A stretch of DNA of 36,464 nucleotides from a virus. Its lineage: Duplodnaviria; Heunggongvirae; Uroviricota; Caudoviricetes. The stretch is taken from the IMG/VR virus record IMGVR_UViG_2645727593_000019; one strand, written 5' to 3'. Below, one piece after another: positions 994 through 36,464 of the stretch; position 1 is the first letter of the stretch, and each line of letters opens with the position of its first letter. The position numbers and the translations under genes were made by a program. The notes beneath the pieces were generated by a model. It saw only the letters and a program-made list of their open reading frames with translations. It ran no database searches and was not told the DNA's origin.

Positions 994-1062
994 GATTAGC
1001 CCCTCCAACGGATAAATTAACTAAACACTCCTTGCGATATGTAATTCGCTCAATGTGTAGAG

Positions 1063-5133: not shown

Positions 5134-5960
5134 AGAAATTCAGACTCTTTCAGATTCTCCCGCTTTTTGCCGCCATCCTGCTGGTTGGTTGCGATCGCGT
5201 TGAGCCAGGTAATGTGGGCATCAAAGTCAACAAACTGGGCGACGACAAAGGCGTCGGTGAAGTGGTTGGCGTTGGCCGCTACTGGACAGGCTGGAATACA
5301 GAGGTTTACATCTTCCCGACCTTCAAACAAATGAAGAGTTACGATGAGCCGTTCAACTTCCAGATGAGTGACGGCACAACCATCGGCTATCACATCGGCG
5401 TGGCCTACAAAGTTGATCCATCCAAAGTTACCACGGTGTTTCAGACCTACCGCAAAGGCGTGGACGACATTACCGACACTGACCTGCGCCAGAAGATCGC
5501 CGATGCACTCAACCGACTGGCCAGCAAAATGACCACCGATAAGTTTATCGACGGTGGTAAGTCTGAACTGCTGGATTCAGCACTTAAAGATATTCAGGAA
5601 GAGATGACCCCCATCGGTATTCAGGTCATGAGCCTCTCTTATGTCGGTAAACCGGAATATCCGCCAACCGTTATCGACAGCATTAACGCCAAAGTCACGG
5701 CAAACCAGAAAACCCTGCAACGCGAACAGGAAGTCAAGCAGCGCGAAGCAGAAGCCAACATGTTGCGCGCAGAAGCTGCCGGACAGGCCGATGCCATTCG
5801 CACAAAAGCCCAGGCTGAAGCCGACGCCATTCGTTTACGCGGCGAAGCTCTGCGCCAGAATCCCGGCGTTATGGAGCTGGAAGCAATCAACAAATGGAAC
5901 GGCACGCTGCCGCAATACATGACCAGTAACACCGCTGTTCCGTTCGTTCCCGTGAAGTAA
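5130..5960 (+). CDS. SPFH/band-7 (stomatin-prohibitin-like) lipoprotein
   Basis: Signal peptide with lipobox LLVGC; band-7-like core followed by an Ala/Glu/Gln/Arg-rich coiled-coil tail (REQEVKQREAEANMLRAEAAGQADAIRTKAQAEADAIRLRGEA). Confidence 0.7.
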   Translation: MKKFRLFQILPLFAAILLVGCDRVEPGNVGIKVNKLGDDKGVGEVVGVGRYWTGWNTEVYIFPTFKQMKSYDEPFNFQMSDGTTIGYHIGVAYKVDPSKVTTVFQTYRKGVDDITDTDLRQKIADALNRLASKMTTDKFIDGGKSELLDSALKDIQEEMTPIGIQVMSLSYVGKPEYPPTVIDSINAKVTANQKTLQREQEVKQREAEANMLRAEAAGQADAIRTKAQAEADAIRLRGEALRQNPGVMELEAINKWNGTLPQYMTSNTAVPFVPVK

Positions 5961-7002: not shown

Positions 7003-9825
7003 ATGACGGCAGAGTACATCAGGGACTGGCAACAACCGCGCCACGCAGTGGGGCGTGAAGGAACGGGGATCCCCGCTCCTGAATCCGCGCTTTCCTCCTG
7101 GCTGGATGCCTACCAGGCAGAGAACGAGCGCCGACAGGAAAAGGCTGATGCGGCGTTCTCCGCCACGCCGCTGGGCAACCTGATTAATAAAAGCCTGGAC
7201 GCACAGGAAAAACAGGACAAAACCATCACGCTGGCAGGAGACGCCAGAAGACAGGCACGCGGCGCGGTGGATGAAGCCATGGCCTCGCTGCGCCTGCTGC
7301 CGTCCTATCTGCGCGATCCGCTTATTCGCCACCTCTCCTTCCTGCGCAAAAAACAGGAAGTCGATCGCCGGAAAGGCAAAAAGAGCTGGCAGGCAGAACG
7401 CTATGCACGCGGAACCCTGCGCAAAATATTCGAACGTCTGGATCGCACTGACGGACACTGGCTGACACCGGGTTATCGCTCCCTTGCCGGACGCGAACGC
7501 CTGGACGATTTGCTTTACCTGCCGCAGCTCAACAAACACCAGATACAGACGCTGGCCACCATGACGGCGGCGATGTTCAGCAGCACCTTCGAAAAACTCT
7601 GCGATGGCTTTGGTGCGACTGATGGCGAGCTGACCATGGATGTAACGCTGAAGGCGTATCAGATGCTGGCCCGCATGGCGTTACACCTGCACGCCATGCC
7701 TCCGCATTATGACGCACTGACAACAGACAAAGGCCGGAGGAACGAACCAGACACGGAGCTGCTGCCGGGCGCAATCCTTCGCCTGACCTGTGCGGAATGG
7801 TGGAAACGCAAACTGTGGCTGTTACGTTGCGAGTGGAGAGAAGAACAACTCCGCGCCGCCTGTCTGGTTTCCAGAAAAACATCGCCCTATCTGAGCCAGG
7901 ATGCGTTAAGCGAGTTTCGCGCACAGCGCGAGAAAACACGCGATTTCCTGAAAAGTTTCATGCTGGAAAACGAAGACGGGTTCACGATTGATCTTGAGAC
8001 AGTGTATTACGCGGGAGTAAGTAACCCGGTTCACCGTAAGGCAGAAATGATGGCCACCATGAAGGGGCTGGAACTTCTGGCCGAAGCCCGTGGCGACAGA
8101 GCGGTGTTTCTGACTGTCACCTGCCCGTCAAAATACCACGCAACAACGGAGAACGGTCATCCGAATCCCAAATGGAACGGGGCCACTATGCGCGACTCCA
8201 GCGATTACCTGGTTAACTCGTTTTTTGCGGCGGTCCGCAAGAAACTGAACCGCGACGGCCTGCGCTGGTATGGCATCCGCACGGTGGAGCCTCACCATGA
8301 CGGCACCGTGCACTGGCATATGATGGTCTTTGCTCATCCGGAAGAAATCGACACCATTGTGTCCCACACCCGCGATATTGCCATTCAGGAAGATCGTCAC
8401 GAGCTGGGTGATGATATTACCCCACGCTTTAAGGCAGAGTACGTCGACGGCTCAAAAGGCACACCGACCAGCTACATCGCCACCTACATCGGAAAGAACC
8501 TGGACAGCCGCGCCGTGGATGGTATCGACCCGAAAACGGGCAAGCCACGCGTTGACCACGAAACCGGAAAATCAATGGCCGAGAGCGTGGAGCGCGCCAT
8601 CGGCTGGGCGCGCCTTCACCGGGTCCGCCAGTTCCAGTTCTTTGGCATCCCCTCCCGTCAGGTGTGGCGTGAACTGCGCCGCCTTGCCAGCCAGATGGCA
8701 CGCAACCCGGAAGGCCCGCAACGGCTGAAGGATGACGCAATGGATGCAGTGCTCGCTGCCGCTGATGCCGGGTGTTTTGCCTCCTACATTGAAAAACAGG
8801 GCGGCGTACTTGTTCCACGCAAAGACTACCTGATTCGCACCGCCTACGACCTCGCAGATGAGCTGAACGATTACGGCGAACAGAGCGTACAGATTTACGG
8901 GATCTGGTCACCACTCATCGGGGAGTCTTCCCGTGTGTGCACACATCCGGATAACTGGAAGCTGGTAAGACGTAAACCGGAAGCGGAAGACAGCGCCCGC
9001 GAAAATGGTTTTGACCTTCAGGGCGGCCCTGCCGCCCCTTGGACTCGTGGCAATAACTGTCCCCGTGTACAGGAAACAGGCAACAACGGGACAGAACAGC
9101 CGGAAGAACGGCCAGCACCGTGGCCGCAGCTTCCTGACGGCGTTGAAGTAAATGAATGGATGCGCTCACTGAAACGGCACGAACGCCGGGCGCTGATGCG
9201 TTCGCTTCGTGACAAACAGGCAAAAAACAGCAGCGATGAAATGCAGAACTGGACACAGAGCCGCAAACAGCAGCGGCCTTTGCCTGATAACCACGAGTTA
9301 CTCGCTAAAGAATGGCGGGAGTCTGCTGAATCTCTCGGCCTGCATATCGGTGAACAACAGATGCAGCACCTGTTACGGGGCGGCAGTCTGTACGTTGACG
9401 GCAGCATCATTGCACCGCAGGGATTTGAAATTGTACGCAAACCGGATACCCGCCCGGACAGCCGAATCACGCAGCTCTGGCAGCGTCTGAGCCGTAATCA
9501 TGGCGTAAGCAGCACGGAGATCCGCCATAACCCGGTCGCCAGCTATCTGGCACAGCTGGGGGCATCAGACCCTGAAGCCGCCGCACGCCTGGCATCCACA
9601 CTTCAGCAGGACCAGAACACCATGAAAACACCCGTTACCGTGCTTTCTGACATGCTGCGCGCCATCCGCGACGCAGAGCACGCACAGAGAATCAGTGAAA
9701 CCACTGAACGCGCCAGCCGCAAAGCAGACCTGCTGCGGGGTGGCCTGACCAGTGGAAACAAAAAACAGACAGAAACGGGACTCACGAATCCCGTAAATGA
9801 GCAAAAAACGCGCAGCGATATATGA
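7003..9825 (+). CDS. A: rolling-circle replication initiator, P2 A family (HUH endonuclease)
   Basis: HUH motif VHWHMMVFAH (about 8305-8335) and catalytic YxxxY pair SYIATYIGKN (about 8466-8498); position after the early operon; 940 aa with a long C-terminal extension. Confidence 0.9.
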   Translation: MTAEYIRDWQQPRHAVGREGTGIPAPESALSSWLDAYQAENERRQEKADAAFSATPLGNLINKSLDAQEKQDKTITLAGDARRQARGAVDEAMASLRLLPSYLRDPLIRHLSFLRKKQEVDRRKGKKSWQAERYARGTLRKIFERLDRTDGHWLTPGYRSLAGRERLDDLLYLPQLNKHQIQTLATMTAAMFSSTFEKLCDGFGATDGELTMDVTLKAYQMLARMALHLHAMPPHYDALTTDKGRRNEPDTELLPGAILRLTCAEWWKRKLWLLRCEWREEQLRAACLVSRKTSPYLSQDALSEFRAQREKTRDFLKSFMLENEDGFTIDLETVYYAGVSNPVHRKAEMMATMKGLELLAEARGDRAVFLTVTCPSKYHATTENGHPNPKWNGATMRDSSDYLVNSFFAAVRKKLNRDGLRWYGIRTVEPHHDGTVHWHMMVFAHPEEIDTIVSHTRDIAIQEDRHELGDDITPRFKAEYVDGSKGTPTSYIATYIGKNLDSRAVDGIDPKTGKPRVDHETGKSMAESVERAIGWARLHRVRQFQFFGIPSRQVWRELRRLASQMARNPEGPQRLKDDAMDAVLAAADAGCFASYIEKQGGVLVPRKDYLIRTAYDLADELNDYGEQSVQIYGIWSPLIGESSRVCTHPDNWKLVRRKPEAEDSARENGFDLQGGPAAPWTRGNNCPRVQETGNNGTEQPEERPAPWPQLPDGVEVNEWMRSLKRHERRALMRSLRDKQAKNSSDEMQNWTQSRKQQRPLPDNHELLAKEWRESAESLGLHIGEQQMQHLLRGGSLYVDGSIIAPQGFEIVRKPDTRPDSRITQLWQRLSRNHGVSSTEIRHNPVASYLAQLGASDPEAAARLASTLQQDQNTMKTPVTVLSDMLRAIRDAEHAQRISETTERASRKADLLRGGLTSGNKKQTETGLTNPVNEQKTRSDI

Positions 9826-9901: not shown

Positions 9902-10861
9902 ATGAAAATTTACATCGACGACGGCTCCACCAACATCAAGCTGGCATGGACTGAGAACGGCGAACGCCGCAACGCCATCAGCCCGAACAGCTTCAAGTCG
10001 GAATGGTCTGCGCCGTTCGGTGGCTCGCAGCCTGCTAACTACATGCTTGATGGCGTGCGCTATGGTTTTGATCCGGTCAGCGATCGCTTTGTCCAGACGA
10101 CCGACACGCAATACCAGTACAGCGATGTGAATGTCATTGCCATTCATCACGCGCTGGTCAAATCAGACATCACGCCACAGGAAGTGGATGTGGTTGTTAC
10201 CCTGCCACTGAGCGAATATTTCGACACAAACGCACAGCCGGACATGGCCAACATCAACCGCAAAAAAGCGAACGTCATGCGCCCGGTGGAGTACCAGAAC
10301 GGCGAAGCATTCACTATCCGTAACGTACGGGTTATGCCTGAATCCATTCCGGCTGGCTTTAAAGCACTGGCTGACATGAGTCCGTTTGAATCCCTGCTGA
10401 TTGTGGATTTGGGCGGAACCACGCTGGATGTGGCAAAGGTTCAGGGGCAACTGGCAGGTATCAGCCAGGTGTTTTGCGATCCACACGTAGGCGTTTCTCT
10501 TATGGCCGATGCCGTACTGTCGGTGATGGCCACTAACGGTATGCGCACCAGTCACCACATCGCCAATACCATTATCGAACATCGCCATAATGAAGCCTGG
10601 CTGCGCCAGCACATCCACAATGACGCGCATTACGCCAGCCTGATGGCGGTTATTCGTGAAAAGGAAGAAACACTGAAACAACGCGTGATCCGCGCGCTGG
10701 CGGTTTTTTCGGGTTACGGGCGGGTGATGGTTGTCGGTGGCGGGGCGGAGATTGTGGCACCCGCTATCCGCGAAGCCTGCGGAGTTAATGCGACTTTCAT
10801 CGCGGACGGGGTGCCACAGTTTGCTCTGGTTAATGGGCTGTACGCAATGGACAAGGAGTAA
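9902..10861 (+). CDS. parM: actin-like ATPase, ParM/StbA family
   Basis: N-terminus MKIYIDDGSTNIKLAW and motifs DLGGTTLD, VMPESIPAG, VVGGGAE match plasmid R1 ParM as I recall it. Confidence 0.85.
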   Translation: MKIYIDDGSTNIKLAWTENGERRNAISPNSFKSEWSAPFGGSQPANYMLDGVRYGFDPVSDRFVQTTDTQYQYSDVNVIAIHHALVKSDITPQEVDVVVTLPLSEYFDTNAQPDMANINRKKANVMRPVEYQNGEAFTIRNVRVMPESIPAGFKALADMSPFESLLIVDLGGTTLDVAKVQGQLAGISQVFCDPHVGVSLMADAVLSVMATNGMRTSHHIANTIIEHRHNEAWLRQHIHNDAHYASLMAVIREKEETLKQRVIRALAVFSGYGRVMVVGGGAEIVAPAIREACGVNATFIADGVPQFALVNGLYAMDKE

Positions 10862-10865
10862 ACCA

Positions 10866-11177
10866 ATGACGACACCAACCAGACGGATAAGTTTCTATCT
10901 GAAGCCCGCCGCCGTCAAGAACGAAGGAGAAGCATGCGCCTGGCTGGACAGCCTTACACCAGAAGCCCGCAAAAGCGGCCAACGCGTGGCTTTTCTGGCC
11001 GGGCTGGCACTTCTGAAGACGAATCCGGCAGAGGCTTACCGACTGGCCGCATGGGCTGATGATGAGATGTTACCTGTGACACAAATCAGCTCAAAAAAGT
11101 TTGAAGCACAGTCTGCACCAGTGGCTAAGATAACCAGCCAGATGGCTGGGAATATCCGGGCGTTATTTCCTGAGTAA
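10866..11177 (+). CDS. parR: ParR/StbB-like DNA-binding adaptor
   Basis: Track ORF 10731..11177 trimmed to ATG 10866; N-terminus RRISFYLKPA...LDSLTPEARKSGQRVAFLAGLAL parallels R1 ParR; starts 5 nt after parM. Confidence 0.6.
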   Translation: MTTPTRRISFYLKPAAVKNEGEACAWLDSLTPEARKSGQRVAFLAGLALLKTNPAEAYRLAAWADDEMLPVTQISSKKFEAQSAPVAKITSQMAGNIRALFPE

Positions 11178-22982: not shown

Positions 22983-23583
22983 TTCACTGTTACCACCATC
23001 AGCCAGCAATTTCATGCGTTGTGCCGAAGCCGTCGGAACACGCATTACAGACATTCCGGTAGACCTCAACACGCTGTGGTCGCCGGACACCTGCCCGGTG
23101 CATCTGCTGCCTTATCTCGCCTGGGCGTTTTCCGTTGACCGCTGGGATCGCAACTGGCCGGAAGAGACAAAGCGACAGGTAATTCGTGATGCATGGCTGA
23201 TACACCGACACAAAGGGACCATCAGCGCACTGCGAAGAGCCGTGGAGCCTCTCGGCTACCTGATTGAAGTAAAGGAGTGGTGGCAACTCAACGAGGAGCC
23301 AGGAACATTTCGCATTGTTGTCGGAGTACTTGATCAGGGCATCACCGATGAAATGTATCAGGAACTTGAGCGCCTTATTGCGGATGCAAAACCAGTAAGT
23401 CGCCATCTGACGGGGCTGGCGATCAGCCTGAGTGTGAACGGAAAGATTTTCGTTGGTACGGGATGCTATCACGGCGATGCCCTGACGGTTTATCCCTACA
23501 CCCCGGAGTCCATTATTGTCGAAGGGGATTATTTCCCTGCCCCGGCCATTCATTTAATTGATAATCTGAGAGTAAACGCATGA
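22975..23583 (+). CDS. I: baseplate protein I
   Basis: Track ORF 22942..23583 trimmed to MSNSLLPP; synteny. Confidence 0.8.
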   Translation: MSNSLLPPSASNFMRCAEAVGTRITDIPVDLNTLWSPDTCPVHLLPYLAWAFSVDRWDRNWPEETKRQVIRDAWLIHRHKGTISALRRAVEPLGYLIEVKEWWQLNEEPGTFRIVVGVLDQGITDEMYQELERLIADAKPVSRHLTGLAISLSVNGKIFVGTGCYHGDALTVYPYTPESIIVEGDYFPAPAIHLIDNLRVNA

Positions 23584-25214
23584 CAGTGAAATACTACGCC
23601 ATTCTGACTAATCAGGGCGCAGCACGACTGGCTAACGCGACGATGCTCGGCAGTAAGCTGAATCTGACGCAAATGGCCGTTGGTGATGCAAATGGTGTGT
23701 TACCAACACCAGACCCTGCACAAACAAAACTGATTAACCAGAAACGCATTGCACCGCTGAATCTTCTGAGTGTTGACCCTAACAATCAGAGCCAGATTAT
23801 TGCGGAGCAAATCATCCCTGAAAACGAGGGAGGATTCTGGATCCGTGAGATTGGTCTTTATGATGATGAAGGTGCACTCATTGCGGTGGCAAACTGCCCG
23901 GAAACGTACAAACCGCAGTTGCAGGAAGGCAGTGGACGCACCCAGACTATCCGCATGATTCTGGTTGTCACGAACACCGAAGCCATCACGCTGAAAATCG
24001 ACCCGTCTGTGGTTCTGGCAACCCGCAAATATGTGGATGATAAAATATCAGAGCACGAACAGTCACGACGTCACCCGGACGCCTCGCTGACCGTAAAAGG
24101 TTTTACTCAGTTAAGCAGTGCAATTAACAGTGAATCAGAAACACTGGCCGCAACACCGAAAGCGGTTAAGGCTGCATATGACCTGGCTAACGGGAAATAT
24201 ACCGCCCAGAACGCCACCACTACACAAAAAGGGATTGTTCAGCTCAGTAGCGCCACGAACAGCACGTCTGAAACGCTGGCAGCGACACCAAAAGCTGTTA
24301 AGGCGGTAATGGATGAAACGAACAAGAAAGCACCATTAAACAGCCCGGCACTGACCGGAACGCCAACAACACCAACAGCGCCACAGGGGACTAATAGTAC
24401 CCAGATCGCAAGCACGGCTTTCGTTATGGCTGCGATTGCCGCACTTGTAGATTCGTCACCTGATGCACTGAACACGCTGAACGAACTGGCTGCAGCGCTG
24501 GGCAATGACCCGAATTTTGCGACCACCATGACTAACGCGCTTGCGGGTAAGCAACCGAAGGATGCCACCCTGACGGCGCTGGCGGAGCTTGCTACATCAG
24601 CAGATAAACTCCCATATTTTACAGGGGCAGATCGTGCCGCGTTAACCGCGTTGACAAGTGTTGGACGTGCCATTCTTGGTAAAACCAGCACTCAGGGAGT
24701 TCTTGATTACCTTGGTTTAGGAGAAGCGGCGAAAAGGGATGTGGGCACGACAGTCGGAACCGTTGCCGCTGGTGATGATTTACGCATAATAGGAGCACTT
24801 CAAAAGGCAAATAATCTTTATGAGTTAACAAATAAATCTGACGCAAGAGCTAATCTTGGGTTAGGAACCGTTGCAACAAAAAACGTGGGAAATAGTGCTG
24901 GGCAAATACCTGATATGTCTTACTGGTCTTCCGTATCGGGTGGCGTTAATTTCCCTAATGGATTCCAGATGCGATTCGGTGCTATCGCTGGTAATGGTGG
25001 AAAATTATTTTCTACGCCATTTACAAATCAGTGCTATGGCATTGTTTTCGGACAAACATATGTAGCCAACTACTGGATGTTCAGCCCGATGTACAGAGCA
25101 TCTGATCTGAGTAATACCGGTTTTGCATTCATTAACAAAACCTGGTCTGGCGTTCCGGGGACAGGTGCTCAGGACGCTGGTGAATCAGTTTTTTATATTG
25201 CAGTAGGGTATTAA
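23580..25214 (+). CDS. H: tail fibre protein (expressed orientation)
   Basis: N-terminus MTVKYYAILTNQGAARLANA typical of P2-type H; repeated SETLAATPKAVKA motifs; distinct C-terminal domain. Confidence 0.85.
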   Translation: MTVKYYAILTNQGAARLANATMLGSKLNLTQMAVGDANGVLPTPDPAQTKLINQKRIAPLNLLSVDPNNQSQIIAEQIIPENEGGFWIREIGLYDDEGALIAVANCPETYKPQLQEGSGRTQTIRMILVVTNTEAITLKIDPSVVLATRKYVDDKISEHEQSRRHPDASLTVKGFTQLSSAINSESETLAATPKAVKAAYDLANGKYTAQNATTTQKGIVQLSSATNSTSETLAATPKAVKAVMDETNKKAPLNSPALTGTPTTPTAPQGTNSTQIASTAFVMAAIAALVDSSPDALNTLNELAAALGNDPNFATTMTNALAGKQPKDATLTALAELATSADKLPYFTGADRAALTALTSVGRAILGKTSTQGVLDYLGLGEAAKRDVGTTVGTVAAGDDLRIIGALQKANNLYELTNKSDARANLGLGTVATKNVGNSAGQIPDMSYWSSVSGGVNFPNGFQMRFGAIAGNGGKLFSTPFTNQCYGIVFGQTYVANYWMFSPMYRASDLSNTGFAFINKTWSGVPGTGAQDAGESVFYIAVGY

Positions 25215-25215
25215 T

Positions 25216-25659
25216 ATGGAAATGGTTTATAGCGCCTCAAATAATAGTTTTTTCGCTAAAAATGATGTGGCGAAATATGAACAGGCCGGATGGGAACTTG
25301 CTGATATTGTCGAAGTGACATATGACACTTACCTGGAATTTATTGAAGACAGAACGTTGCAAGGGAAAGTACGCATCGCGGGTGATGATGGCCTTCCCAC
25401 CTGGGGGGAAATTCCACCGCCAACTCATGAGGAACAAATTGCCGCAGCCGAACTGGAAAAGCAGCAATTGATTAATCAGGTCAACGAATACATATACAGT
25501 AAGCAATGGCCTGGTAAAGCAGCGATTGGTCGCCTGAAAGGTGAGGAACTGGCGCAATATAATTTGTGGCTGGATTATCTGGACGCACTGGAACTGGTCG
25601 ATACTTCCGGTGCGCCAGATATTGAATGGCCTACGCCTCCGGCAGTTCAGGCCAGATGA
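25216..25659 (+). CDS. G: tail fibre assembly chaperone
   Basis: Immediately after H; C-terminus APDIEWPTPP mirrors the opposite-strand paralogue. Confidence 0.75.
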   Translation: MEMVYSASNNSFFAKNDVAKYEQAGWELADIVEVTYDTYLEFIEDRTLQGKVRIAGDDGLPTWGEIPPPTHEEQIAAAELEKQQLINQVNEYIYSKQWPGKAAIGRLKGEELAQYNLWLDYLDALELVDTSGAPDIEWPTPPAVQAR

Positions 25660-26224
25660 CGTCCGGCGCTGTGCTGGTATCTGTTGCCGTCACCGCGTCA
25701 ATATAATCCAGCACAGCGTTAAGTCGGGTGTTTTCTGGCTGCGTCAGCTTCCGCCCGGCCTGTAATTTCAGTTGAATCAGACTGATGGAAGCCATTGCAG
25801 CATCAATCAGCGACTGGCGCTGTGCTTCTGCAGCTTCTACTGCGGCGCTATGCTGTGCCTCGGTATCCGTCACCCATTTCTCACCATCCCATTTATCGTA
25901 TGGCGTTAACGGTGAAAGCGTGACATAACCGTCTTTGATGGCACCGATATAATCCACTGTAACAGCTGCGCCATTTTCAGTTGAGTAAACGGTCTCATTG
26001 CGATGGTCTTCTTCATGGCTCCATCCCTTACCCGTAAATACTGCCACTCTTCCCGGAATGTATTCGCCCGGGTCAATACCAGTGGAACAAACGGGCATAC
26101 TTACGCCAGTATTAATATATTCATCAGACCAGCCCGTATATTCAGACGTTACTGCATCATAATAATAACAACGCATATCACCCGGCACTGTAGCCAGCCC
26201 ATTTTCATCAAAAACAGGTTTCAT
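25631..26224 (-). CDS. alternative tail fibre assembly chaperone (silent orientation)
   Basis: Minus-strand paralogue of G with C-terminus APDVIWPELP; its 3' end overlaps G by 29 bp. Confidence 0.7.
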   Translation of the reverse strand: MKPVFDENGLATVPGDMRCYYYDAVTSEYTGWSDEYINTGVSMPVCSTGIDPGEYIPGRVAVFTGKGWSHEEDHRNETVYSTENGAAVTVDYIGAIKDGYVTLSPLTPYDKWDGEKWVTDTEAQHSAAVEAAEAQRQSLIDAAMASISLIQLKLQAGRKLTQPENTRLNAVLDYIDAVTATDTSTAPDVIWPELPEA

Positions 26225-26715
26225 TATGCAGCCCTCACAATATAATTAAAGGCGATGTTACGTGGACGGTTTTCATTAGCTGTTGGCACGACACGAGAGG
26301 CGTCGAATCCAAGGTCATCGGTTTTGCCTATATCAGTTGTGTTATTCGGCATTCTCGCAGATCGTGTTCCTGCATCATAAAAAGCCCCTCTGATTGCATC
26401 AAAAGACATACCGATCCCGCCATCTGCGAATCCCTCAATATTTCTTATTGCATCCCCCTGTGAAGATAATAATTGTCGCCCGGCATCCACACCACGTCCG
26501 TCATCCCAGCCACGAATAAATTCACCGCGTAAATCCGGCAATTTATTTGTCGGATAAACCTTTGCCAGTTCCGGGTATTCTTCAGCAGAAAAAGCCGCAC
26601 CGTTGCATTTCAGCCAGCCAGTAGGCGGTGTGGCTGAAGGCCACGGAACAGGCACACCAACGGGTAATGCCGAACCTTCTCCCAAACCAACGTTTTCGTT
26701 TTTATCCCTACCTAT
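26224..26715 (-). CDS. alternative tail fibre C-terminal cassette (promoterless; 5' limit approximate)
   Basis: Minus-strand frame encoding a collar-type fibre tip (LKCNGAAFSAEEYPELAKVYP...RGEFIRGWDDGRGVD...NIAFNYIVRA); junction residues NVGLGEG resemble H residues NLGLGTV. Confidence 0.65.
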   Translation of the reverse strand: MGRDKNENVGLGEGSALPVGVPVPWPSATPPTGWLKCNGAAFSAEEYPELAKVYPTNKLPDLRGEFIRGWDDGRGVDAGRQLLSSQGDAIRNIEGFADGGIGMSFDAIRGAFYDAGTRSARMPNNTTDIGKTDDLGFDASRVVPTANENRPRNIAFNYIVRAA

Positions 26716-26757
26716 ACCAACTCTGTATTTTTCACGAAACAAAGAGGATGTTTTTTT

Positions 26758-27357
26758 ATGCAAATTGGCTATATTCGTGTGTCAACAAATGACCAGAACA
26801 CGGATTTACAACGCAATGCACTGAACTGCGCAGGATGTGAACTGATTTTTGAAGATAAAATCAGCGGAACGAAATCAGCCAGACCGGGATTGAAAAAACT
26901 GCTCAGAACGCTATCAGAAGGAGATACGCTGGTTGTCTGGAAGCTGGACAGACTGGGCAGAAGTATGAAACACCTGATCACGCTTATTGAGGAATTGCGG
27001 GAAAAAGGTGTTAATTTCCGTAGTCTGACGGACAGCATTGACACATCAACACCCATGGGGCGTTTCTTTTTTCACGTCATGGGGGCTTTAGCCGAAATGG
27101 AACGTGAATTAATTGTAGAGCGTACACTGGCCGGGCTGGCAGCAGCACGCGCACAAGGACGCATTGGCGGACGTCGCCCGAAGTTGACAAAAGAACAACA
27201 CGAGCAAATAGCGAGGCTGATTAAAAACGGTCATGACAGGAAACAACTGGCGATCATTTACGACATCGGCATATCGACGATTTATCGTTATCACCCTGTA
27301 GGCGATATACAGGCTGAAGAAACAACCAGGCAGACTCAGGAAAATAAAAACCGCTAA
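26758..27357 (+). CDS. serine DNA invertase (Gin/Hin/Pin/Cin family)
   Basis: N-terminus MQIGYIRVSTNDQ with the catalytic Ser; C-terminal HTH; adjacent to the inverted fibre cassette. Confidence 0.9.
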   Translation: MQIGYIRVSTNDQNTDLQRNALNCAGCELIFEDKISGTKSARPGLKKLLRTLSEGDTLVVWKLDRLGRSMKHLITLIEELREKGVNFRSLTDSIDTSTPMGRFFFHVMGALAEMERELIVERTLAGLAAARAQGRIGGRRPKLTKEQHEQIARLIKNGHDRKQLAIIYDIGISTIYRYHPVGDIQAEETTRQTQENKNR

Positions 27358-27376
27358 TCTGACCATTAGCGGTTTT
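27346..27376. terminator. bidirectional terminator between the invertase and U
   Basis: AAAAACCGCTAAT-CTGACC-ATTAGCGGTTTT perfect hairpin flanked by A and T runs; spans the invertase stop codon. Confidence 0.7.
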
Positions 27377-27383
27377 GCGTTAA

Positions 27384-27878
27384 TCAAAACAGCCCTTTAA
27401 CGGAGCTGGCCGCGCTGTTAAGGGATGATGTGACCTTATCTTTGAAGCCGGACAGCATATCACTGAACGATGAGGATTGCAGGCGCTCCCGCAAATCCTC
27501 ATCACAGCGTTCAAGAGTCAGTGAAAATTCTATCTTTTTCGCCTTACCGTAGCGATCAAACTCGGAACGGGTCGTATTCGTTTCAGTCAGTACATACATG
27601 CCGTAAATCTGCCCGACACCATCAATCAGAGGCCAGGGGCGTCCTGTATATGCCTGCGTGGTCAGCAACGAAAGCGACACTTCGCCACCTGTAATTTCAG
27701 GATAAAGCACGCCGGAAAGCACGATGCGATCATCACCTGCGCCGATATACTGCCAGCTTGCTGAACGGTTAACGCGTTCATTTTTCACATGCCGCCAGCT
27801 TTTGTTTTGCTGTAACTGCTGATGCGGCAATGTGCGCAGCTCAAAAACAAACATGCCATAGATCATCATCATGGCCAT
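27384..27878 (-). CDS. U: tail protein U
   Basis: Directly downstream of T on the minus strand; size as P2 U. Confidence 0.7.
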   Translation of the reverse strand: MAMMMIYGMFVFELRTLPHQQLQQNKSWRHVKNERVNRSASWQYIGAGDDRIVLSGVLYPEITGGEVSLSLLTTQAYTGRPWPLIDGVGQIYGMYVLTETNTTRSEFDRYGKAKKIEFSLTLERCDEDLRERLQSSSFSDMLSGFKDKVTSSLNSAASSVKGLF

Positions 27879-27884
27879 GACTCC

Positions 27885-30692
27885 TCAATCTTTATCGTAA
27901 AAACTGCCACGTCCGGCACGGTCGCGTCGTTCCAATTCTGCCCTGACCATTTCACCGACCAGTTTCGCCAGTTCGCGGGGATTCTGCGTAACAACGTTAT
28001 GCAGATGAACATGAATTTCACCGCCAAATCCGGAGACAACAGGCTCCCGGTTACGGGAAGTTGCAGGAACTGATGCCACTGGCGATCGTATGGCCTCCGC
28101 CACCGGGCGGGAGCTGGCCGCAACAACAGGGACCAGCGCCGGAGGCAGAGGAGTCGGGACCACGGGTGTGATGTTGATTGCGGAAGCAGGCTTACTGACC
28201 TGCGCAATCTTCCGCTCCTGCCACTCCCCACGAACAGCAAGTGCGCGGGGCAGATTCTTAAAGACAATATCGCCGGGGCCAATGCGTTTTTTCGTCTCAT
28301 CAACCAGCTTACCTGTGTTATCAGCAATTTTGCTGAGTCTGCGTAGCGTACCGGTATTGCTGTCTGTGAGCGGTTTGTTGTCTTTGGGTTTATCACCTCC
28401 GGTGCCATTGCCATTTTCCACAGGCTTCGGCGGATTGATTTTCGCCAGGTCCCCCTGAAGCAAGGCAACCTTGTCCTGAAGAATGGCCGCACGCTGTGCG
28501 TCTTCGATTTTCTTGCGCGCCCTTTCCGCTTCATCCGGAAGGACGCCAAGTTTTTCAAGTATCCACGCCAGCGTATCCAGTAGCATTTTTGCAGGCGTCA
28601 GAACAAGTTGTAACGCACCGCCAAGAACGTTACCGAATATCTCGCCAGCACTGGTACATTTATCCAGCGTTTCCTTGCTGGACTCCATCGGTGACAGCAG
28701 CGATTTAAACCAGTTAAACACCTGGCTGATCCCGCTTCCGATTGCGTCAAAAACAGGACCAAACCGTTCAAAGGTTTCGCGCAACGGGGCCAGCCTTTCC
28801 ATAATCCCGCTGAACACCCCGGCAAAAAATGCCCTGATGGGATCCCAGTATTTCCAGATAAGTACGGCAGCTCCGGCAAGTGCAGCCACGATAAGACCAA
28901 CCGGACTGAACAGCGCCCCGATAGCGCCTCCCAGTAAAGAAACGGAACCCGTCACCATTCCCCATAGTGCTGGCAGGACCCTGACAGCATTCATTGATCC
29001 GGTCAGGAAAGAAAAACCAAGACGCAGTTTTGCCAGCGGACCAGCAAGCACACCAATAGCCAGCGACAACGAGCCAACCGTTGCAGTCATTGCTAGCAAC
29101 GCACCGCCTGCTATCAGTAGCTGGCGCGTCAGTGCCGGATGGGCCTGCGCCAGCGCCGTCACCCTTGATACCACCCGCGTGAGCCACTGCGTGACAGAAC
29201 GCAGCGGACCGTCAATCAGATCTGCAATGCGGATGCGCAACCCTTCCCATGCACTGCCGAGTGATTTCAGATCGCCGTCAAGGTTGTTGGCCATAACCTT
29301 TGCTGTGCGTTCAGCCTCACCGCGCGCGCCTTCAAGTTCTTTTCTCAGTTTGGGTAAGGAACCGTCACCCGCTGCATCAACGAGCGCCATAAACGATGTG
29401 AAAGCCTCTTCTCCGGCAATGTCCTTAAAGAACGATACCCGGTCAACTTCCCCGTATTTGCGGGTGGCTTTATAAAGGTCGGCCAGCACATCCTCCATCG
29501 GGCGCATTTTGCCCCCGGCATCCGAGACGGACACGCCCAGCTCTTTCAGAGCTTCTGCCGCCGCCTTTGGCGGTGATGCCAGACGAGCCAGGCTGGCACG
29601 CATTGCCGTCCCGGCATCACTCCCTCTGATGCCCATATTCGCCAGCACGCCAGCCATCGCTGCGGCCTGCTCCAGCGATATTCCCAGCTTACCCGCCACC
29701 GGACCTGCATATTTCATGGTTTCGCCCAGTGCGCGAAGGTCAGTGTTGGTACGGGTAAACGCTGCGGTGAGTGTGTCACCGACCCGGTCCATCTGGTCAG
29801 CAGAAAGGCCGAACTGCGTCAGGATATTTGAGCCAATATCTGCCGTCTCGCCGAGATCCATACCGCCAGCCGTTGCCATGCTCAGCACTCCGGGAAGCGC
29901 AGCCTGAATGGCCTGCGGTGTGAAGCCAGCCATTGCAAGAAATGCCTGCCCACTGGCGGCATCGCCTGCGGTGAACTGCGTTTCAGAGCCAAGTTTTAAC
30001 GCCTGCTCACGCAGCGCCTTAAACTGCGGGCTGTTCTGGTCGATTCGCGTCAGCGCCTGAACGCGGGACATCTCTTTGCCGAACCCGATCGCGGGCTGCA
30101 AAAAACGCCCGGCAGCATAGCCGCCCGCCGCTGCCGCACCAATTGCCAGCGCACCACCTGTTTTCAGTTTTCCCGCGGTTTCCTGCGCGCGCGAATACCG
30201 CTCACGCGCCCGCGTTACACGCGCAAGCGCCTGCCGTTCGCGTTCAAGCTGGTTGTTGTACTGTTCGGTGCGTCTGATGGCCTGCTGGATGGTGTTATCG
30301 CTGCCTGTCAGGGAAATGCCGTGGCGTTTCAGCTCTCCGCCAAGTTCCCGCATTTTCTGAATTTCCCGTGTGCGCGATTCATTCAGGCGTTCAAGCCGGG
30401 TGCTTAACTGCTGCATCAGCTTTTGTTGTTTTTCGCTGAGCACTGTACCCGTGCGTTGTAACTGATTAAGAGCGTTAAGCTGGCGTCGTGCTTTCAATAT
30501 GCCAGCATCCGCTTTACTGACAGCGTCACGGGCGCGCTCAAATGAACGCGCCTGACGCTCGAGATTTTTGATCGCCCCCTGCGTTCGCTGGATGGAGTCA
30601 CCAAACTGCCCCATCAGGCGGCGGGCGTTTTCGGCAGGCCGGGTCAGCCTGTCAACGGCGCTGAAAGCGACCCGGATATCAAGAGTCTTCAT
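27885..30692 (-). CDS. T: tail tape measure protein
   Basis: Track ORF 27885..30728; start chosen at MKTLDIRVAFSAVDRLTRP to align with the P2 T N-terminus; Ala/Gly-rich TM-like core. Confidence 0.85.
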   Translation of the reverse strand: MKTLDIRVAFSAVDRLTRPAENARRLMGQFGDSIQRTQGAIKNLERQARSFERARDAVSKADAGILKARRQLNALNQLQRTGTVLSEKQQKLMQQLSTRLERLNESRTREIQKMRELGGELKRHGISLTGSDNTIQQAIRRTEQYNNQLERERQALARVTRARERYSRAQETAGKLKTGGALAIGAAAAGGYAAGRFLQPAIGFGKEMSRVQALTRIDQNSPQFKALREQALKLGSETQFTAGDAASGQAFLAMAGFTPQAIQAALPGVLSMATAGGMDLGETADIGSNILTQFGLSADQMDRVGDTLTAAFTRTNTDLRALGETMKYAGPVAGKLGISLEQAAAMAGVLANMGIRGSDAGTAMRASLARLASPPKAAAEALKELGVSVSDAGGKMRPMEDVLADLYKATRKYGEVDRVSFFKDIAGEEAFTSFMALVDAAGDGSLPKLRKELEGARGEAERTAKVMANNLDGDLKSLGSAWEGLRIRIADLIDGPLRSVTQWLTRVVSRVTALAQAHPALTRQLLIAGGALLAMTATVGSLSLAIGVLAGPLAKLRLGFSFLTGSMNAVRVLPALWGMVTGSVSLLGGAIGALFSPVGLIVAALAGAAVLIWKYWDPIRAFFAGVFSGIMERLAPLRETFERFGPVFDAIGSGISQVFNWFKSLLSPMESSKETLDKCTSAGEIFGNVLGGALQLVLTPAKMLLDTLAWILEKLGVLPDEAERARKKIEDAQRAAILQDKVALLQGDLAKINPPKPVENGNGTGGDKPKDNKPLTDSNTGTLRRLSKIADNTGKLVDETKKRIGPGDIVFKNLPRALAVRGEWQERKIAQVSKPASAINITPVVPTPLPPALVPVVAASSRPVAEAIRSPVASVPATSRNREPVVSGFGGEIHVHLHNVVTQNPRELAKLVGEMVRAELERRDRAGRGSFYDKD

Positions 30693-31217
30693 TGTCTGTA
30701 TTCCCGCTGCGAAGTGCCGCCCGCTCACGCCAGCTAACCACTTCGCCGGGAGTCATCATGAAGATTTCGGCGGGCGACCAGTTAAAAATGGTGGCAATAT
30801 CCGCCACCAGATCTTCGATGTGCTCAAAGCACACCAGGGTGATTACGCTGCCGTCTCCTGCACGCTCTTCGCGCCAGAGTCTGGCTCGCTCATAAAATTT
30901 ACAGCCACAGCGCACAACTGAATAAAATCGCGTGACGACATTTTTTTAATCATCACTTCATCCAGTTGTGGCGAGGTCACGCGAGGCAACAGCGTGAACA
31001 TGGTATCCGCTTTCAGATTCAGCACATCAGACAGCGACAGACCACGCAGGGATCCCGCCTGCTCAATAGCCCCGGTGATCTCCACATATGTGATTTTTTC
31101 GGCACCACGCTCAATTGGCCGGGAAAGTTTTACACCACGTTCGACAGCCATATCCTCACCTGCCGTCACATCATCCGCTACGGTGTTATTCCGGGTTTCA
31201 GTATCGATATTTTTCAT
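30679..31217 (-). CDS. E+E' fusion made by a programmed -1 frameshift
   Basis: The -1 frame (track ORF 30679..30915) opens right after an A7 run (plus strand T7 at 30941-30947) inside E; same arrangement as P2 E/E' and lambda G/GT. Confidence 0.55.
30843..31217 (-). CDS. E: tail assembly chaperone E
   Basis: Track ORF between FII and T; 124 aa. Confidence 0.7.
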   Translation of the reverse strand: MKNIDTETRNNTVADDVTAGEDMAVERGVKLSRPIERGAEKITYVEITGAIEQAGSLRGLSLSDVLNLKADTMFTLLPRVTSPQLDEVMIKKMSSRDFIQLCAVAVNFMSEPDSGAKSVQETAA

Positions 31218-31272
31218 CAGTTGTCTCCTTTTCAGTCAGAGGCGACGCACTGCGCCGCCTGCATATTACTTA

Positions 31273-31785
31273 TCAGCCAAGCCCGAGCGCGGAACGGATG
31301 CGATCGGGCACAATGTCCTTGCCGTCCTTCCGGTAAATGAAGTTCAGCAGGTCAATCTCCCACAACGGGCGATCGTTAACACTCAGCTTGTAGTAGGTGT
31401 TTTTAATGGCGTAAGTGTGTGATGTGGCTTCGCCCTGTTTGGCTTCCCCCATATCAATTTCCGTCACACGTCCGCGCATTTCGACTTCATACAGGTCGCT
31501 TTCTGCATCGGTGTAATATTCACCCGCAAAACGCAGCAGCGTGCCGTCAATCGTGCCGCCATACTTAAGGAACAGCTCACGAACTGCGCCCCCCATGACA
31601 AAGCTCGCATCAAGCGCGGAGTCGTCCAGACCGAGATCAATACTTACCGCCCCCATCATGCCACCACCCCGGTAGCTGTCGGTTTTGCGCGTCAGCTTAG
31701 GCAGGGTGACGGACGTCACCTTACCCACTTCGTTTTCACCATCCACAAACAGCGTAAAAAAGCGAAGATGTTTTGGCACAGCCAT
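31273..31785 (-). CDS. FII: tail tube protein
   Basis: Matches P2 FII (VTLPKLTRK, YRG, DLGLDD, RFAG, MRGR). Confidence 0.85.
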   Translation of the reverse strand: MAVPKHLRFFTLFVDGENEVGKVTSVTLPKLTRKTDSYRGGGMMGAVSIDLGLDDSALDASFVMGGAVRELFLKYGGTIDGTLLRFAGEYYTDAESDLYEVEMRGRVTEIDMGEAKQGEATSHTYAIKNTYYKLSVNDRPLWEIDLLNFIYRKDGKDIVPDRIRSALGLG

Positions 31786-32969
31786 CAGGCACCTCCCAGC
31801 ACCGCAAATGCGGGTTCAAAGTATTCATCAGTAAACGTCTGGTAAAGCTCCATGTCTTCCAGCGGAGGAACTGGCGTATATTTGTAGCGAATACGCACAC
31901 GCCCCTGACGTAAATCCGTGGTGCTGTTATCCACCACGTCATACCAGCACTCCGCGCCAATCAGTTTCCCGGCAGTCACCAGTGAATCCAGTTTTGCCCT
32001 GATGGCACTGATAACATCCTTCACGTTCGCAGGCGTCAGTGGACTGTCGATGGTTTCAAACTGCGCTTCCGCAATTGAATCAGCCAGCACCTGTGCGGTT
32101 CGGGTATACACCTCAAAGATGTAGGCGTTCGTTTCCGGTGTGCGGTTGCCCCAGAAGCGGAACCCGTTGCGACGAATAATGGTCGTGATTTCTTTGTTGT
32201 TGAGGCTGTTGGCATCACTGTCTTCGACCTGCAACGACCAGAACACATGCCTGGACATCCCCAGCACATTTTTAACCGGAACGTTGGACAGCGATTTGTG
32301 CCAGCCCTGCTCATGGTCAATGTACGCACGAAGGCCGCACGCATAGGCAGGTGCGGGGAACGTTTCGTTTTTGCCACTTTTCGAGTTGTAGGCGATGAAG
32401 TCCGGCCATAAGAGCATCACCTCACGTTCGTTGAATTTCTGGCGGTAGGTAATCGCCTCAGCCATCGTGTTACAGCCGTGACATGAGGCATACACAAACG
32501 CGCGCAGTTTACCCGCAATCACGCACAGGGATTTTGTTACCGCCTCCGTGTCCAGCTCCGGCGCGGCCAGAATACGCGGACGGTATCCGATGCTTTCATC
32601 CTGCTCTGCAACAAGCAGCGCATACATCCCCGTATAGCTGCCGTCAGATTCAGAACCACCGATAACCAGTTGATCCTGCGTTTTTCCGTCTTCTTCTTTG
32701 TGTTCAGCCACGCGAACGACGATCACCTTTGTGCTCACCTGGTCTGCGATGGCCTTAAGCGCACGATAAAGCGTCCCCGTTGTCCCGCATTTTCCCAGCA
32801 CGTCATTGACGCGGGTCAGCAGTGTGGGCTTGTTCAGCGGGAACAGCTCCGCATCCGCATCATCCGCCGTTGCCACGATACCGATAACACTGGAATCAAC
32901 ATCATTAATCGCTGTTACCAGGTCGGTACTTTCCGTAACACGGGCACCATGAAAACGAGTTTCACTCAT
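31785..32969 (-). CDS. FI: tail sheath protein
   Basis: Matches P2 FI (ADDADAELFPLNKP, KLRAF, WPDF, EQGWHK, RRNGFRFWGNRT, YTRTAQV, YTPVPPLE). Confidence 0.9.
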   Translation of the reverse strand: MSETRFHGARVTESTDLVTAINDVDSSVIGIVATADDADAELFPLNKPTLLTRVNDVLGKCGTTGTLYRALKAIADQVSTKVIVVRVAEHKEEDGKTQDQLVIGGSESDGSYTGMYALLVAEQDESIGYRPRILAAPELDTEAVTKSLCVIAGKLRAFVYASCHGCNTMAEAITYRQKFNEREVMLLWPDFIAYNSKSGKNETFPAPAYACGLRAYIDHEQGWHKSLSNVPVKNVLGMSRHVFWSLQVEDSDANSLNNKEITTIIRRNGFRFWGNRTPETNAYIFEVYTRTAQVLADSIAEAQFETIDSPLTPANVKDVISAIRAKLDSLVTAGKLIGAECWYDVVDNSTTDLRQGRVRIRYKYTPVPPLEDMELYQTFTDEYFEPAFAVLGGA

Positions 32970-33126: not shown

Positions 33127-34236
33127 ATGACCGACACCACCATGCAATTGCTCAGTCAGGGCACAGACCCCGTGAAAATGCCGGATTTTGATATTCTCGC
33201 GGAGGGTAAAACGCTGTCCGGCGTGGCAGAGCGCCTGATGAGCCTGTCGCTGACCGACAACCGGGGATTTGAGGCGGACCAGCTCACCATCACGCTGGAT
33301 GATGCCGATGGCCAGTTGCAGCTACCGCCACGGGGAGCGCCTCTGACGGTTCTCATTGGCTGGAAAGGGGAACCGCTGACAGAAAAAGGCACTTACATTG
33401 TTGATGAAATCGCTCACGAAGGACCGCCGGACAGGCTGACTGTTTCAGCCAGAAGCGCAGATTTTCGGGATGAATTTAACGTTAAACGTGAGGTGTCCTG
33501 GCATGATGTGACCGTTGAGCGTGTGGTATCCGCCATCGCTCATCGGTATGGTCTGAAACCGCAAATCAGCGAAATGCTGATGGATATCGAAATCGACCAC
33601 GCCGACCAGACCGAAGAAAGCGACATGTCCTTCCTTACGCGCATGGCGGAAATGCTGGGCGCAATCACCACGGTAAAAAGCGGCAATCTGTTATTCATCA
33701 TGCCAGGCGGTGGCGTGAACGCACAGGGCCAGCCGTTGCCCTCGTTCGCCATCACACGCAGCAGCGGCGATCGCCATCAGTTCCGCATTGCTGACCGCGA
33801 GGCGTATACGGGGGTACGCGCCTACTGGCTTGATCTTAATTACGGGAAAAAGAAAAAAGTCAGCGTGAAACGCCGTAAACCGCCAAAACCCAAAAAGGAG
33901 AAAAGCAGCAGCCGTGAAGGTGATTATATGGAAGGCGCGGAAGGCAATGTGTTTGTGTTACGCAAGACTTATCAGAACGAGCAGGCAGCAAGACACGCAG
34001 CGGCGGCAAAGTGGCAGCAACTACAACGCGGAGCCGCATCATTCTCCATCACACTGGCTCGTGGACGCGCAGAACTCTACCCCGAAATGCATGGCACGGT
34101 GACAGGCTTCAAAAGTGACATCGACAATCAGGACTGGATTATTGCAAAAGCCGAGCACACCATTGATAACAGCGGCTTTACCACGCAGCTTGAGCTTGAA
34201 GCAAAAATCCCGGAATGGATAGCAGAAACAGAGTGA
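33127..34236 (+). CDS. D: tail protein D (late control D family)
   Basis: Track ORF 32995..34236 trimmed to MTDTTMQ with SD; gpD-family features including a lysine-rich linker (KKKKVSVKRRKPPKPKKEK). Confidence 0.8.
   Translation: MTDTTMQLLSQGTDPVKMPDFDILAEGKTLSGVAERLMSLSLTDNRGFEADQLTITLDDADGQLQLPPRGAPLTVLIGWKGEPLTEKGTYIVDEIAHEGPPDRLTVSARSADFRDEFNVKREVSWHDVTVERVVSAIAHRYGLKPQISEMLMDIEIDHADQTEESDMSFLTRMAEMLGAITTVKSGNLLFIMPGGGVNAQGQPLPSFAITRSSGDRHQFRIADREAYTGVRAYWLDLNYGKKKKVSVKRRKPPKPKKEKSSSREGDYMEGAEGNVFVLRKTYQNEQAARHAAAAKWQQLQRGAASFSITLARGRAELYPEMHGTVTGFKSDIDNQDWIIAKAEHTIDNSGFTTQLELEAKIPEWIAETE

Positions 34237-35171: not shown

Positions 35172-36464
<1,293 letters not shown>

Follow-up and report, generated by a model that had tools for sequence, protein, structure and literature searches.

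An invertible tail-fibre segment of the Pin/Gin type in a P2-family prophage of Escherichia coli

Both orientations of the tail-fibre segment

We found that the Gemsvirus-like Peduoviridae prophage in the window, the whole 36,464-nucleotide stretch of DNA analysed here (IMG/VR record IMGVR_UViG_2645727593_000019), contains a tail-fibre segment whose inversion, with exchange at the centre of the crossover site, is directly documented. Very probably the region is a two-state invertible segment of the Pin/Gin type, carried by an E. coli prophage of the P2 family (Gemsvirus-like; Table 1). A sequence-only reading had predicted an invertible cassette with a Gin/Hin-family invertase, and this was borne out by the invertase domains, the two sites and the finding that prophages alike in every other respect occur with the segment in either orientation. 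The gene order that it described (H, G, an inverted chaperone, an inverted silent tip and a serine invertase) holds by open reading frames and Pfam domains, and the 29-bp overlap that it placed between the 3' ends of the chaperone genes on opposite strands is exact (25631-25659). Its range of 24850-27357 takes in the later parts of the element and leaves out 150 bp at the start of the invertible segment, since the left site lies 150 bp upstream of 24850.

Table 1. Features of the invertible tail-fibre segment and its surroundings (positions in the window)
Feature	Coordinates	Strand	Basis or remark
Tail fibre gene H	23580-25214	+	ORF; Pfam Phage_tail_fib and Phage_fiber_2
H constant N-terminal part (aa 1-378)	23580-24713	+	ORF; Pfam
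Left crossover site, 12+2+12 bp, inside H	24700-24725		TTCTTGATTACC TT GGTTTAGGAGAA; encodes ..DYLGLGE..
Invertible segment, 1,975 bp between both central dinucleotides	24714-26688		in-silico flip equals contig L008
Fibre tip A, H aa 379-544 (tip-specific: aa 383-544)	24714-25214	+	expressed in window orientation
Chaperone A (G; tail fibre assembly protein, P2 gpG-like)	25216-25659	+	co-expressed with tip A; Caudo_TAP 1.5e-29; phrog_188
Chaperone B (tail fibre assembly protein)	25631-26224	-	silent in window orientation; Caudo_TAP 3.7e-27; phrog_105
Fibre tip B cassette	26224-26688	-	silent in window orientation; Pfam Collar 4.4e-15
Right crossover site	26677-26702		TTCTCCCAAACC AA CGTTTTCGTTTT; second-best matrix score
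Serine DNA invertase, 199 aa, Gin/Pin/Hin/Cin family	26758-27357	+	Pfam Resolvase and HTH_7
Putative recombinational enhancer (sis)	26779-26842		inside 5' end of invertase gene; two Fis-type 15-mers, by homology
Hairpin terminator between convergent invertase and gpU genes	27347-27376		12-bp stem, then T run

Reverse complementing 24714-26688 in silico generated an in-frame fibre of 532 aa, identical to a database protein (WP_052905928.1) that is found on at least six contigs. The window flipped in this manner matches a public E. coli contig (L008) at 100.000% over 13,599 bp with 0 mismatches, and the native window matches another public contig (L013) at 100% over 13,635 bp. Inversion was also seen in closed complete genomes: O157:H7 strains FRIK944 and BB24-1 have the same prophage, 100% identical in the flanks, in versions that differ by a precise 1.9-kb inversion whose ends fall at the homologous sites. 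The contiguous junction of constant H with tip B is present in 100 complete E. coli genomes. A search for the native H-tip A junction found no complete E. coli genome with at least 80% coverage and, tip A being rare, is unusable for counting orientations; the two orientations are documented by comparing different isolates.

The breakpoint of the inversion maps to the left site in the comparisons L003/L004 and L008/L013, and the right-site breakpoint is also visible when flipped and native contigs are compared. An A/G difference between the inner half-sites (24719 and 26683) changes sides in flipped copies, which confines the exchange to 24712-24718, central dinucleotide included. These data bear on whether the orientation polymorphism could have arisen independently of the invertase, through RecA-dependent recombination between short inverted repeats or as an assembly artefact, an origin that we consider highly improbable. 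The repeats do share 18 nt at 89% identity, and short-read contigs L011, L012 and L014 stop inside the segment or at the right site. However, the perfect match between the repeats spans only 7 nt, which is far too short for efficient homologous recombination, and the exchange maps to 7 bp containing the central dinucleotide, as predicted for a serine invertase. Moreover, the inversion is found in closed complete genomes and, by PCR, in E2348/69, and an intact cognate invertase lies 68 bp away.

Crossover sites

We scanned the whole 36-kb window with a site matrix built from the half-sites of Mu gix and e14 pix, and found that the left site (score 24.1) and the right site (18.1) were the top two positions, against shuffle maxima of 17.0 (50 shuffles) and 17.6 (100 shuffles, matrix from Mu and e14 only). 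The imperfect 26-bp inverted sites anticipated in H and near the invertase start were thereby located by computational search. Their central dinucleotides, TT on the left and AA on the right, are the same after inversion. The outer half-site on the right matches the matrix poorly (score 2.9), a degeneracy that its counterpart in e14 shares. The left site is also the point where homology to other prophages and phages stops, the constant part of H being 99% identical in related prophages as far as the crossover site.

The positions at which the sequence-only reading had sought the crossovers required correction. Its right candidate, 26690-26750, overlaps the true site in part but misses the exact position, and its left candidate, 24860-24900, is no site at all (matrix score -3.5), the true left site being that at 24700-24725. 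We rejected the left candidate as a decayed paralogue of the LGLG peptide encoded by the site, with 26 of 42 nt identical between NLGLGTVATKNVG and YLGLGEAAKRDVG; the core of this second LGLG motif (24850-24890 in H) reads ATC TT GGG, versus ACC TT GGT in the true site.

The number of sites also bears on the choice between a two-state segment and a multi-site shufflon, which would have at least three sites for crossover and a repertoire of more than two fibres, multi-site inversion being exemplified by Min of p15B. Although the E2348/69 prophage (98-99% identical) has three sites and H contains the second LGLG motif at 24850-24890, a shufflon is very unlikely here: the matrix places just two sites in the 36 kb of the window, the position ranked third scoring 11.3, inside the shuffle range; the second LGLG motif has a mutated core along with its negative score; and there are two tips and two chaperones only.

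Less specific searches performed poorly at this locus. When inverted repeats were sought without a site model, the 25 pairs listed with seed 8 did not include the true pair, an 18-nt repeat of 89% identity, which came only 16th by length with seed 7, so that a repeat search alone cannot separate the pair from chance. The core pattern AAACCNNGGTTT, with two mismatches allowed, gave 19 matches versus 16.8 expected and was uninformative. We also considered, and rejected, flipping of the adjoining FI-U tail block by the same invertase: the borders of this block carry no gix-like sites (best score 7.2), and the best inverted repeat there (11/14) is within the shuffle range.

Invertase, putative enhancer and transcription signals

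The invertase matched Pfam families Resolvase (PF00239, 1.5e-51) and HTH_7 (PF02796, 1.4e-12), the DNA invertase family phrog_125 (1e-98) and the Mu Gin structures 4m6f and 3uj3 (E 3e-91). NCBIfam gave sub-threshold matches only for the invertase, and no match for the fibre, tips or chaperones. The protein is 72.5% identical to Gin, 82% identical to PinE and 100% identical to the enzyme of the E2348/69 P2-like prophage, and it retains the catalytic S9 in the motif YIRVSTNDQ. Its residues K46, K47, R50, Q150, R153 and L154 are, with an offset of -1, those through which Hin contacts Fis and the enhancer; in Hin numbering, K47, K/R48, K/R51, Q151, R154 and L155 are conserved only in invertases that depend on Fis and the enhancer (PMC3798978).

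Two G-N13-C 15-mers lie at nt 22-36 and 71-85 of the invertase gene (26779-26793 and 26828-26842), and Mu gin, e14 pinE and the O157 invertase gene all have the same 15-mers at the corresponding register. The encoded protein is conserved at these positions too, so conservation of the DNA is no independent evidence for an enhancer. In the Din family the enhancer is a cis-acting element made up of two Fis sites that are spaced by about 48 bp and lie early in the gene for the invertase; that of Mu was reportedly placed within the 5' end of gin by Kahmann and colleagues in 1985.

A promoter scan of the stretch from the right site to the invertase ATG found no sigma-70-like promoter. This result, together with the degenerate outer half of the right site, is what one would look for in a frozen relic, in which the cassette was kept while the invertase or the sites died and inversion ceased; many prophage invertible regions do decay, as in L002, with a truncated invertase, and L016, a prophage remnant. 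Nevertheless, there is very little chance that the segment is such a relic, given that both orientations occur among prophages that are 100% identical over 13.6 kb and again in O157:H7 strains with identical flanks, and that the full-length invertase, catalytic Ser included, is identical to the enzyme of a prophage that inverts experimentally (PMC4272514).

Fibre tips and chaperones

In the window state the fibre comprises 544 aa (constant H plus tip A) with chaperone A downstream, and in the flipped state it comprises 532 aa (constant H plus tip B) with chaperone B directly downstream (L007-L010). Tip B is silent in the window orientation because it has neither an N-terminus nor a promoter of its own, and a promoter scan of the - strand upstream of tip B found no promoter-like site. 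Gene callers split or mis-start this silent tip, beginning it at a TTG at 26685 or extending the ORF to 26763, across the invertase start.

The tips had been described as unrelated, and BLASTP of tip A against tip B agrees (E = 35). Chaperones A and B share only their C-terminal 72 aa (38% identity, E 9e-11); e14, the O157:H7 prophage and E2348/69 show the same 29-bp overlap of their chaperone genes. Tip B is 98.7% identical to the fibre of phage SKA5 and 71% identical to HK97 Stf. Tip A is the sole unusual part of the element and is rare among sequenced phages: it is a divergent gp53-like tip with a weak Gp53-like_C match (E 0.023), and its best matches in a collection of 50,697 phage records have 33-45% identity, with none above ~45%, over part of the tip. 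It also carries a 44-aa insert containing a decayed copy of the crossover-site peptide.

By homology with Mu, P1 and e14, we infer that the two orientations would confer different receptor and host specificities. It is conceivable, though doubtful, that tip A represents a rarely sampled receptor-binding module and that the switch toggles between a very common specificity of the HK97-Stf/Collar type and an uncharacterised one.

Proposed mechanism and significance

In the mechanism that we propose for this two-state segment, the invertase would bind the two inverted 26-bp sites (24700-24725 and 26677-26702), cut at the central TT/AA and invert the 1,975 bp between them, a reaction that, judging from Gin and Hin, probably requires Fis bound to the putative enhancer early in the gene of the invertase itself. 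Because the left site lies inside H, the constant N-terminal 378 codons would join either tip A or tip B. Whichever way the segment points, the upstream late operon V-W-J-I-H would drive expression of the constant part, with the unexpressed tip and its chaperone predicted to point the wrong way and to stand without a promoter.

The device is already well described and is an ordinary two-state switch of the e14/Pin type. Gin/Pin-type invertible tail-fibre segments have been textbook material since the 1980s and a prophage with 98-99% identical flanks and the identical invertase has been shown to invert in EPEC E2348/69, so the discovery value is small. The practical consequences concern annotation and comparison: with the corrected site coordinates both fibre isoforms can be annotated, and strain comparisons at this locus will yield spurious "structural variants". 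Short-read assemblies can break at crossover sites; several of the short-read contigs examined here (L011, L012 and L014) end inside the segment or at the right site. For the engineering of phage host range, tip A offers a candidate receptor-binding domain that is as yet uncharacterised.

The cassette is also found in an unrelated e14/Mu-like backbone, with homology beginning exactly at the crossover site, which suggests that the invertase site may also act as a junction for cassette exchange between phage families. The idea that cassettes are exchanged via invertase sites goes back to the 1990s, when it was put forward for Mu, P1, P2 and p15B.

Comparison with known systems

The parallel with the Mu G and P1 C segments holds, in that the window follows the same Sc-Sv/U versus Sv'/U' logic with a site inside the fibre gene. 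Shared with Mu and P1 are the site consensus ..AAACC NN GGTTT.. and an invertase gene immediately downstream, the distance from the centre of the right site to the invertase ATG being 68 bp in the window and 67 bp in Mu. In contrast to the 3-kb Mu segment, which has perfect 34-bp repeats with central TC/GA, the window has a 2-kb segment whose sites are imperfect and have TT/AA at their centre; there is no overlap between the chaperone genes of Mu, and the tips in the window are unrelated to the Mu tips at the DNA level. With Salmonella Hin/hix the window shares the invertase family, the 26-bp sites and the residues contacting Fis and the enhancer, and its putative enhancer would lie, like the Fis-dependent one of Hin, within the invertase gene. 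Whereas Hin flips a promoter and has its own gene inside the segment, the window switches a coding fusion and has its invertase gene outside.

The P segment and PinE of e14 were reportedly described by Plasterk and van de Putte in 1985. As a cryptic prophage of E. coli K-12 carrying these two components (PMC4272514), e14 shares with the window the entire order of constant fibre part, site, tip, chaperone, inverted chaperone, inverted tip, site and invertase, including the convergent chaperone overlap. The right site is identical to the e14 right site TTCTCCCAAACCAACGTTTATGAAAA at 20 of 26 positions, the inner half-sites are identical or 1 nt apart, and parts of the segment show 77-89% DNA identity; an e14-like prophage of E. 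coli PT62 has the whole cassette in common with the window at 92%. However, e14 is a defective element with another baseplate and another constant fibre part, whereas the prophage in the window is a complete myovirus of the P2 family. The left sites also differ in their outer halves (TTCTTGATTACC in the window versus CTCTCGAAAACC in e14), tip A is different too, and the window invertase extends 15 aa further at the C-terminus.

Goldberg et al. (2014, PMC4272514) demonstrated inversions by WGS and PCR in the P2-like prophage at 1.89 Mb in E2348/69, where three inverted repeats support four variants through two overlapping inversions of about 2.0 and 1.6 kb, compared to two sites and two variants in the window. 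Between the sites the two prophages carry different cassettes, which align only in short stretches at ~83% identity. The flanks, in contrast, are 97.9% (left) and 99.3% (right) identical, and the outer half-sites are the same, as is the invertase protein throughout its length.

Organization of the prophage and its fibre cassette

The 36-kb window approximates one complete P2-family prophage, flanked opposite the integrase side by the chromosomal serS gene, which marks the chromosomal junction region. By gene order and DNA similarity it groups with the Gemsvirus Escherichia phage 500465-2 (family Peduoviridae), as well as with prophages found in EPEC E2348/69 and in E. coli O157:H7. Canonical P2 order is H G FI FII E T U D; here the tail block FI-FII-E-E'-T-U is inverted compared to that order, and also compared to a second P2-like prophage of E2348/69, in which FI to U follow the invertase on its own strand. 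The inverted block is common to phage 500465-2, O157:H7 and the E2348/69 prophage at 1.89 Mb, and is therefore a lineage trait; its borders lack gix-like sites, and inverted repeats there do not exceed chance. This integrated prophage carries a plasmid-type partition module, located between replication gene A and the portal gene, and its early region encodes an SPFH/Band-7 family protein that could be a moron or a defence-related cargo gene.

Features of the prophage and its fibre cassette
Feature	Position	Strand	Domain or placement
Integrase	1-1008	-	
SPFH/Band-7 family protein	5130-5960	+	PF01145, 6.5e-31
cox-like gene			Between integrase and gene A
Replication gene A	7003-9825		
ParM/StbA actin-like segregation ATPase and Plasmid_stab_B protein	9902-10861 and 10731-11177	+	PF06406 1e-80, PF21523 (ParM/StbA)
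Portal, terminase, capsid, lysis genes			Between gene A and R, S
R, S, V, W, J, I	V at 21154		In this order, then H and G, ahead of invertible region
H (tail fibre)	23580-25214		
G (chaperone A)	25216-25659	+	Caudo_TAP
Chaperone B	25631-26224	-	Caudo_TAP
Silent tip ORF, long form	26224-26763	-	Collar
Invertase	26758-27357	+	Resolvase/invertase with HTH_7
gpU, tape measure, E, tube, sheath (tail block)	27384-32969	-	3' of invertible region and invertase
gpD	about 33128-34236	+	
serS (seryl-tRNA synthetase)	35172-36464	-	Chromosomal

The sequence-only reading named five cassette genes, and each is there with the domains expected of it: H has a P2-type fibre N-terminus and fibre repeats, and the invertase matches Mu Gin crystal structures over residues 1-185 (E 3e-91). 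The proposed 29-bp overlap of the chaperone genes is exact (25631-25659) and recurs in e14 (tfaP/tfaE), the O157:H7 prophage and the second E2348/69 prophage; the two chaperones are alike solely over their C-terminal 72 residues (38% identity). As had also been claimed, the fibre tips are unrelated (BLASTP E = 35) and the silent tip is promoterless, with no promoter-like site upstream on its own strand. Its long ORF is an artefact that crosses the crossover site into the invertase start. Gene callers assign the silent tip spurious starts: a TTG lying within the crossover site at 26685 (a 153-aa call in E. coli contig L013), and the start of the long ORF at 26763, an ORF overlapping the start codon of the invertase. 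RefSeq annotation of related genomes (the E. coli DETEC-S589 prophage and one O157:H7 prophage locus) breaks H into several pseudogene fragments.

Crossover sites

General repeat finders were uninformative, the true pair being an 18-nt, 89% inverted repeat of rank 16 by length among chance repeats. Using a position matrix derived from gix (Mu) and pix (e14) half-sites in fetched loci, with hixL added in one version, we found that the top two positions in the whole window are 24700-24725 (TTCTTGATTACC TT GGTTTAGGAGAA) and 26677-26702 (TTCTCCCAAACC AA CGTTTTCGTTTT). These score 24.1 and 18.1 with hixL and 23.0 and 18.1 without it, compared to 11.3-12.0 for the next-best position and to maxima of 17.0 and 17.6 in 50 and 100 shuffles, respectively. 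Megablast matches from unrelated prophages and phages begin at query 310-313 and stop at 2294-2296, corresponding to window 24709-24712 and 26693-26695. The central dinucleotides are identical after inverting one site, as a serine invertase requires. A multi-site shufflon is unsupported, as no third site was found in the window.

A left-site candidate had been proposed near 24860-24900; it scores -3.5 and was rejected. The peptide encoded there, NLGLGTVATKNVG, is a copy of the true junction peptide YLGLGEAAKRDVG that has diverged (26/42 nt), a resemblance that explains why this stretch was chosen. The motif (window 24843-24892), a decayed paralogue of the site-encoded junction, sits in a 44-aa insert of the expressed tip (tip A) that the O157 gp53-like tip does not have, and is possibly left over from an earlier junction.

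Both orientations in public genomes

With 24714-26688 reverse-complemented in silico, H remains in frame and gives a 532-aa fibre ending in the Collar tip (tip B), with the junction reading ...VLDYLGLGE followed by GSALPVGVPVPW... By exact-sequence look-up, this flipped fibre (WP_052905928.1, E. coli) and the native 544-aa H (WP_249436910.1) are both public. We then compared fetched contigs encoding either fibre with the native and flipped window, and found that two match the flipped window (L008, GCA_902505465.1, 100.000% identity over 13,599 bp; L012, 100% over 7,731 bp) and another the native window (L013, GCA_001267335.1, 100% over 13,635 bp). The existence of 100%-identical copies in both orientations excludes a frozen relic that no longer inverts. 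A one-base difference between the inner half-sites (A at 24719 versus G opposite 26683) has swapped sides in flipped copies and the outer mismatch at 24711 is unmoved, placing the exchange within 24712-24718, central TT included. O157:H7 FRIK944 and BB24-1 carry the same prophage with 100% identical flanks and the 1.9-kb segment precisely inverted at homologous sites, and the junction of constant H to tip B is contiguous in 100 complete E. coli genomes.

The 114-kb short-read contig L011 (GCA_001265165.1, JHQV01000098.1) has its last base at flipped-window 26687, inside the right crossover site (...TTCTCCTAAAC), and contigs L012 and L014 stop inside the invertible segment. Such ends would be expected had the cultures mixed both orientations, which they do no more than suggest.

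At the E2348/69 locus, inversions from 1,891,695 / 1,892,127 to 1,893,703 were detected by whole-genome sequencing and PCR, as was inversion in e14 and a second P2-like prophage (Goldberg et al., PMC4272514). That 1.89-Mb prophage has flanks 97.9% and 99.3% identical to those here and the same outer half-sites. Because its invertase (NC_011601.1 1,893,763-1,894,362) is 100% identical in protein to ours, the enzyme encoded here is one whose activity has been shown by experiment. RecA-mediated or artefactual inversion is unlikely, given that the perfect match between the repeats is just 7 nt, that exchange maps to the site centre, and that inversion is visible in closed genomes and PCR-confirmed in the sister prophage. 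The sequence-only reading of an invertible tail-fibre switch is correct. The analysis fixed the coordinates of the two sites and established the in-frame alternative fusions, the tip-chaperone pairing and, by comparison across isolates, both orientations in otherwise identical prophages.

The two tips

Tip B is common, sharing 98.7% identity with the fibre of phage SKA5 and about 71% with HK97 Stf, and in 450 phage records matches span 80% or more of it. Tip A is rare: its best phage matches show 33-45% identity over part of its length, its match to Gp53-like_C is sub-threshold (E 0.023), and its fusion to this constant region was found in no complete E. coli genome. E. coli PT62 has an e14/Mu-like prophage in which the whole cassette is found at 92% identity, with homology starting precisely at the left site. 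Conservation across the locus is lowest in tip A and the N-terminal half of its chaperone (24726-25407). The closest prophage, that of DETEC-S589, is 97-99% identical on both sides and unrelated across 24749-25407, a pattern pointing to replacement inside the cassette, downstream of the site. It is reasonable to infer that the two tips give different receptor specificity.

Proposed inversion mechanism and comparison with known systems

By analogy with the family, invertase dimers sitting on the two sites would form a synapse with a Fis-bound enhancer, followed by strand exchange through subunit rotation. The catalytic S9 supports this mechanism. Hin residues K47, K/R48, K/R51, Q151, R154 and L155 are reported to be specific to Fis/enhancer-dependent invertases (PMC3798978), and the window invertase keeps these contact residues (K46, K47, R50, Q150, R153, L154), in further support. 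Two Fis-type G-N13-C 15-mers at nucleotides 22-36 and 71-85 of the invertase gene (26779-26793 and 26828-26842 in the window), which match gin and pinE in register, form a putative enhancer in the 5' end of the gene, an assignment tied to protein conservation, of which the DNA match is not independent. No sigma-70-type promoter was found for the invertase.

The spacing from site centre to invertase ATG, 67 bp in Mu versus 68 bp here, also supports the family mechanism. The E2348/69 locus differs in having three sites and four variants, compared to two sites and two variants in the window. Overall, this Gemsvirus-like prophage of the P2 family has a standard fibre switch of the e14/Pin type, familiar in kind and, in effect, familiar in this lineage too.
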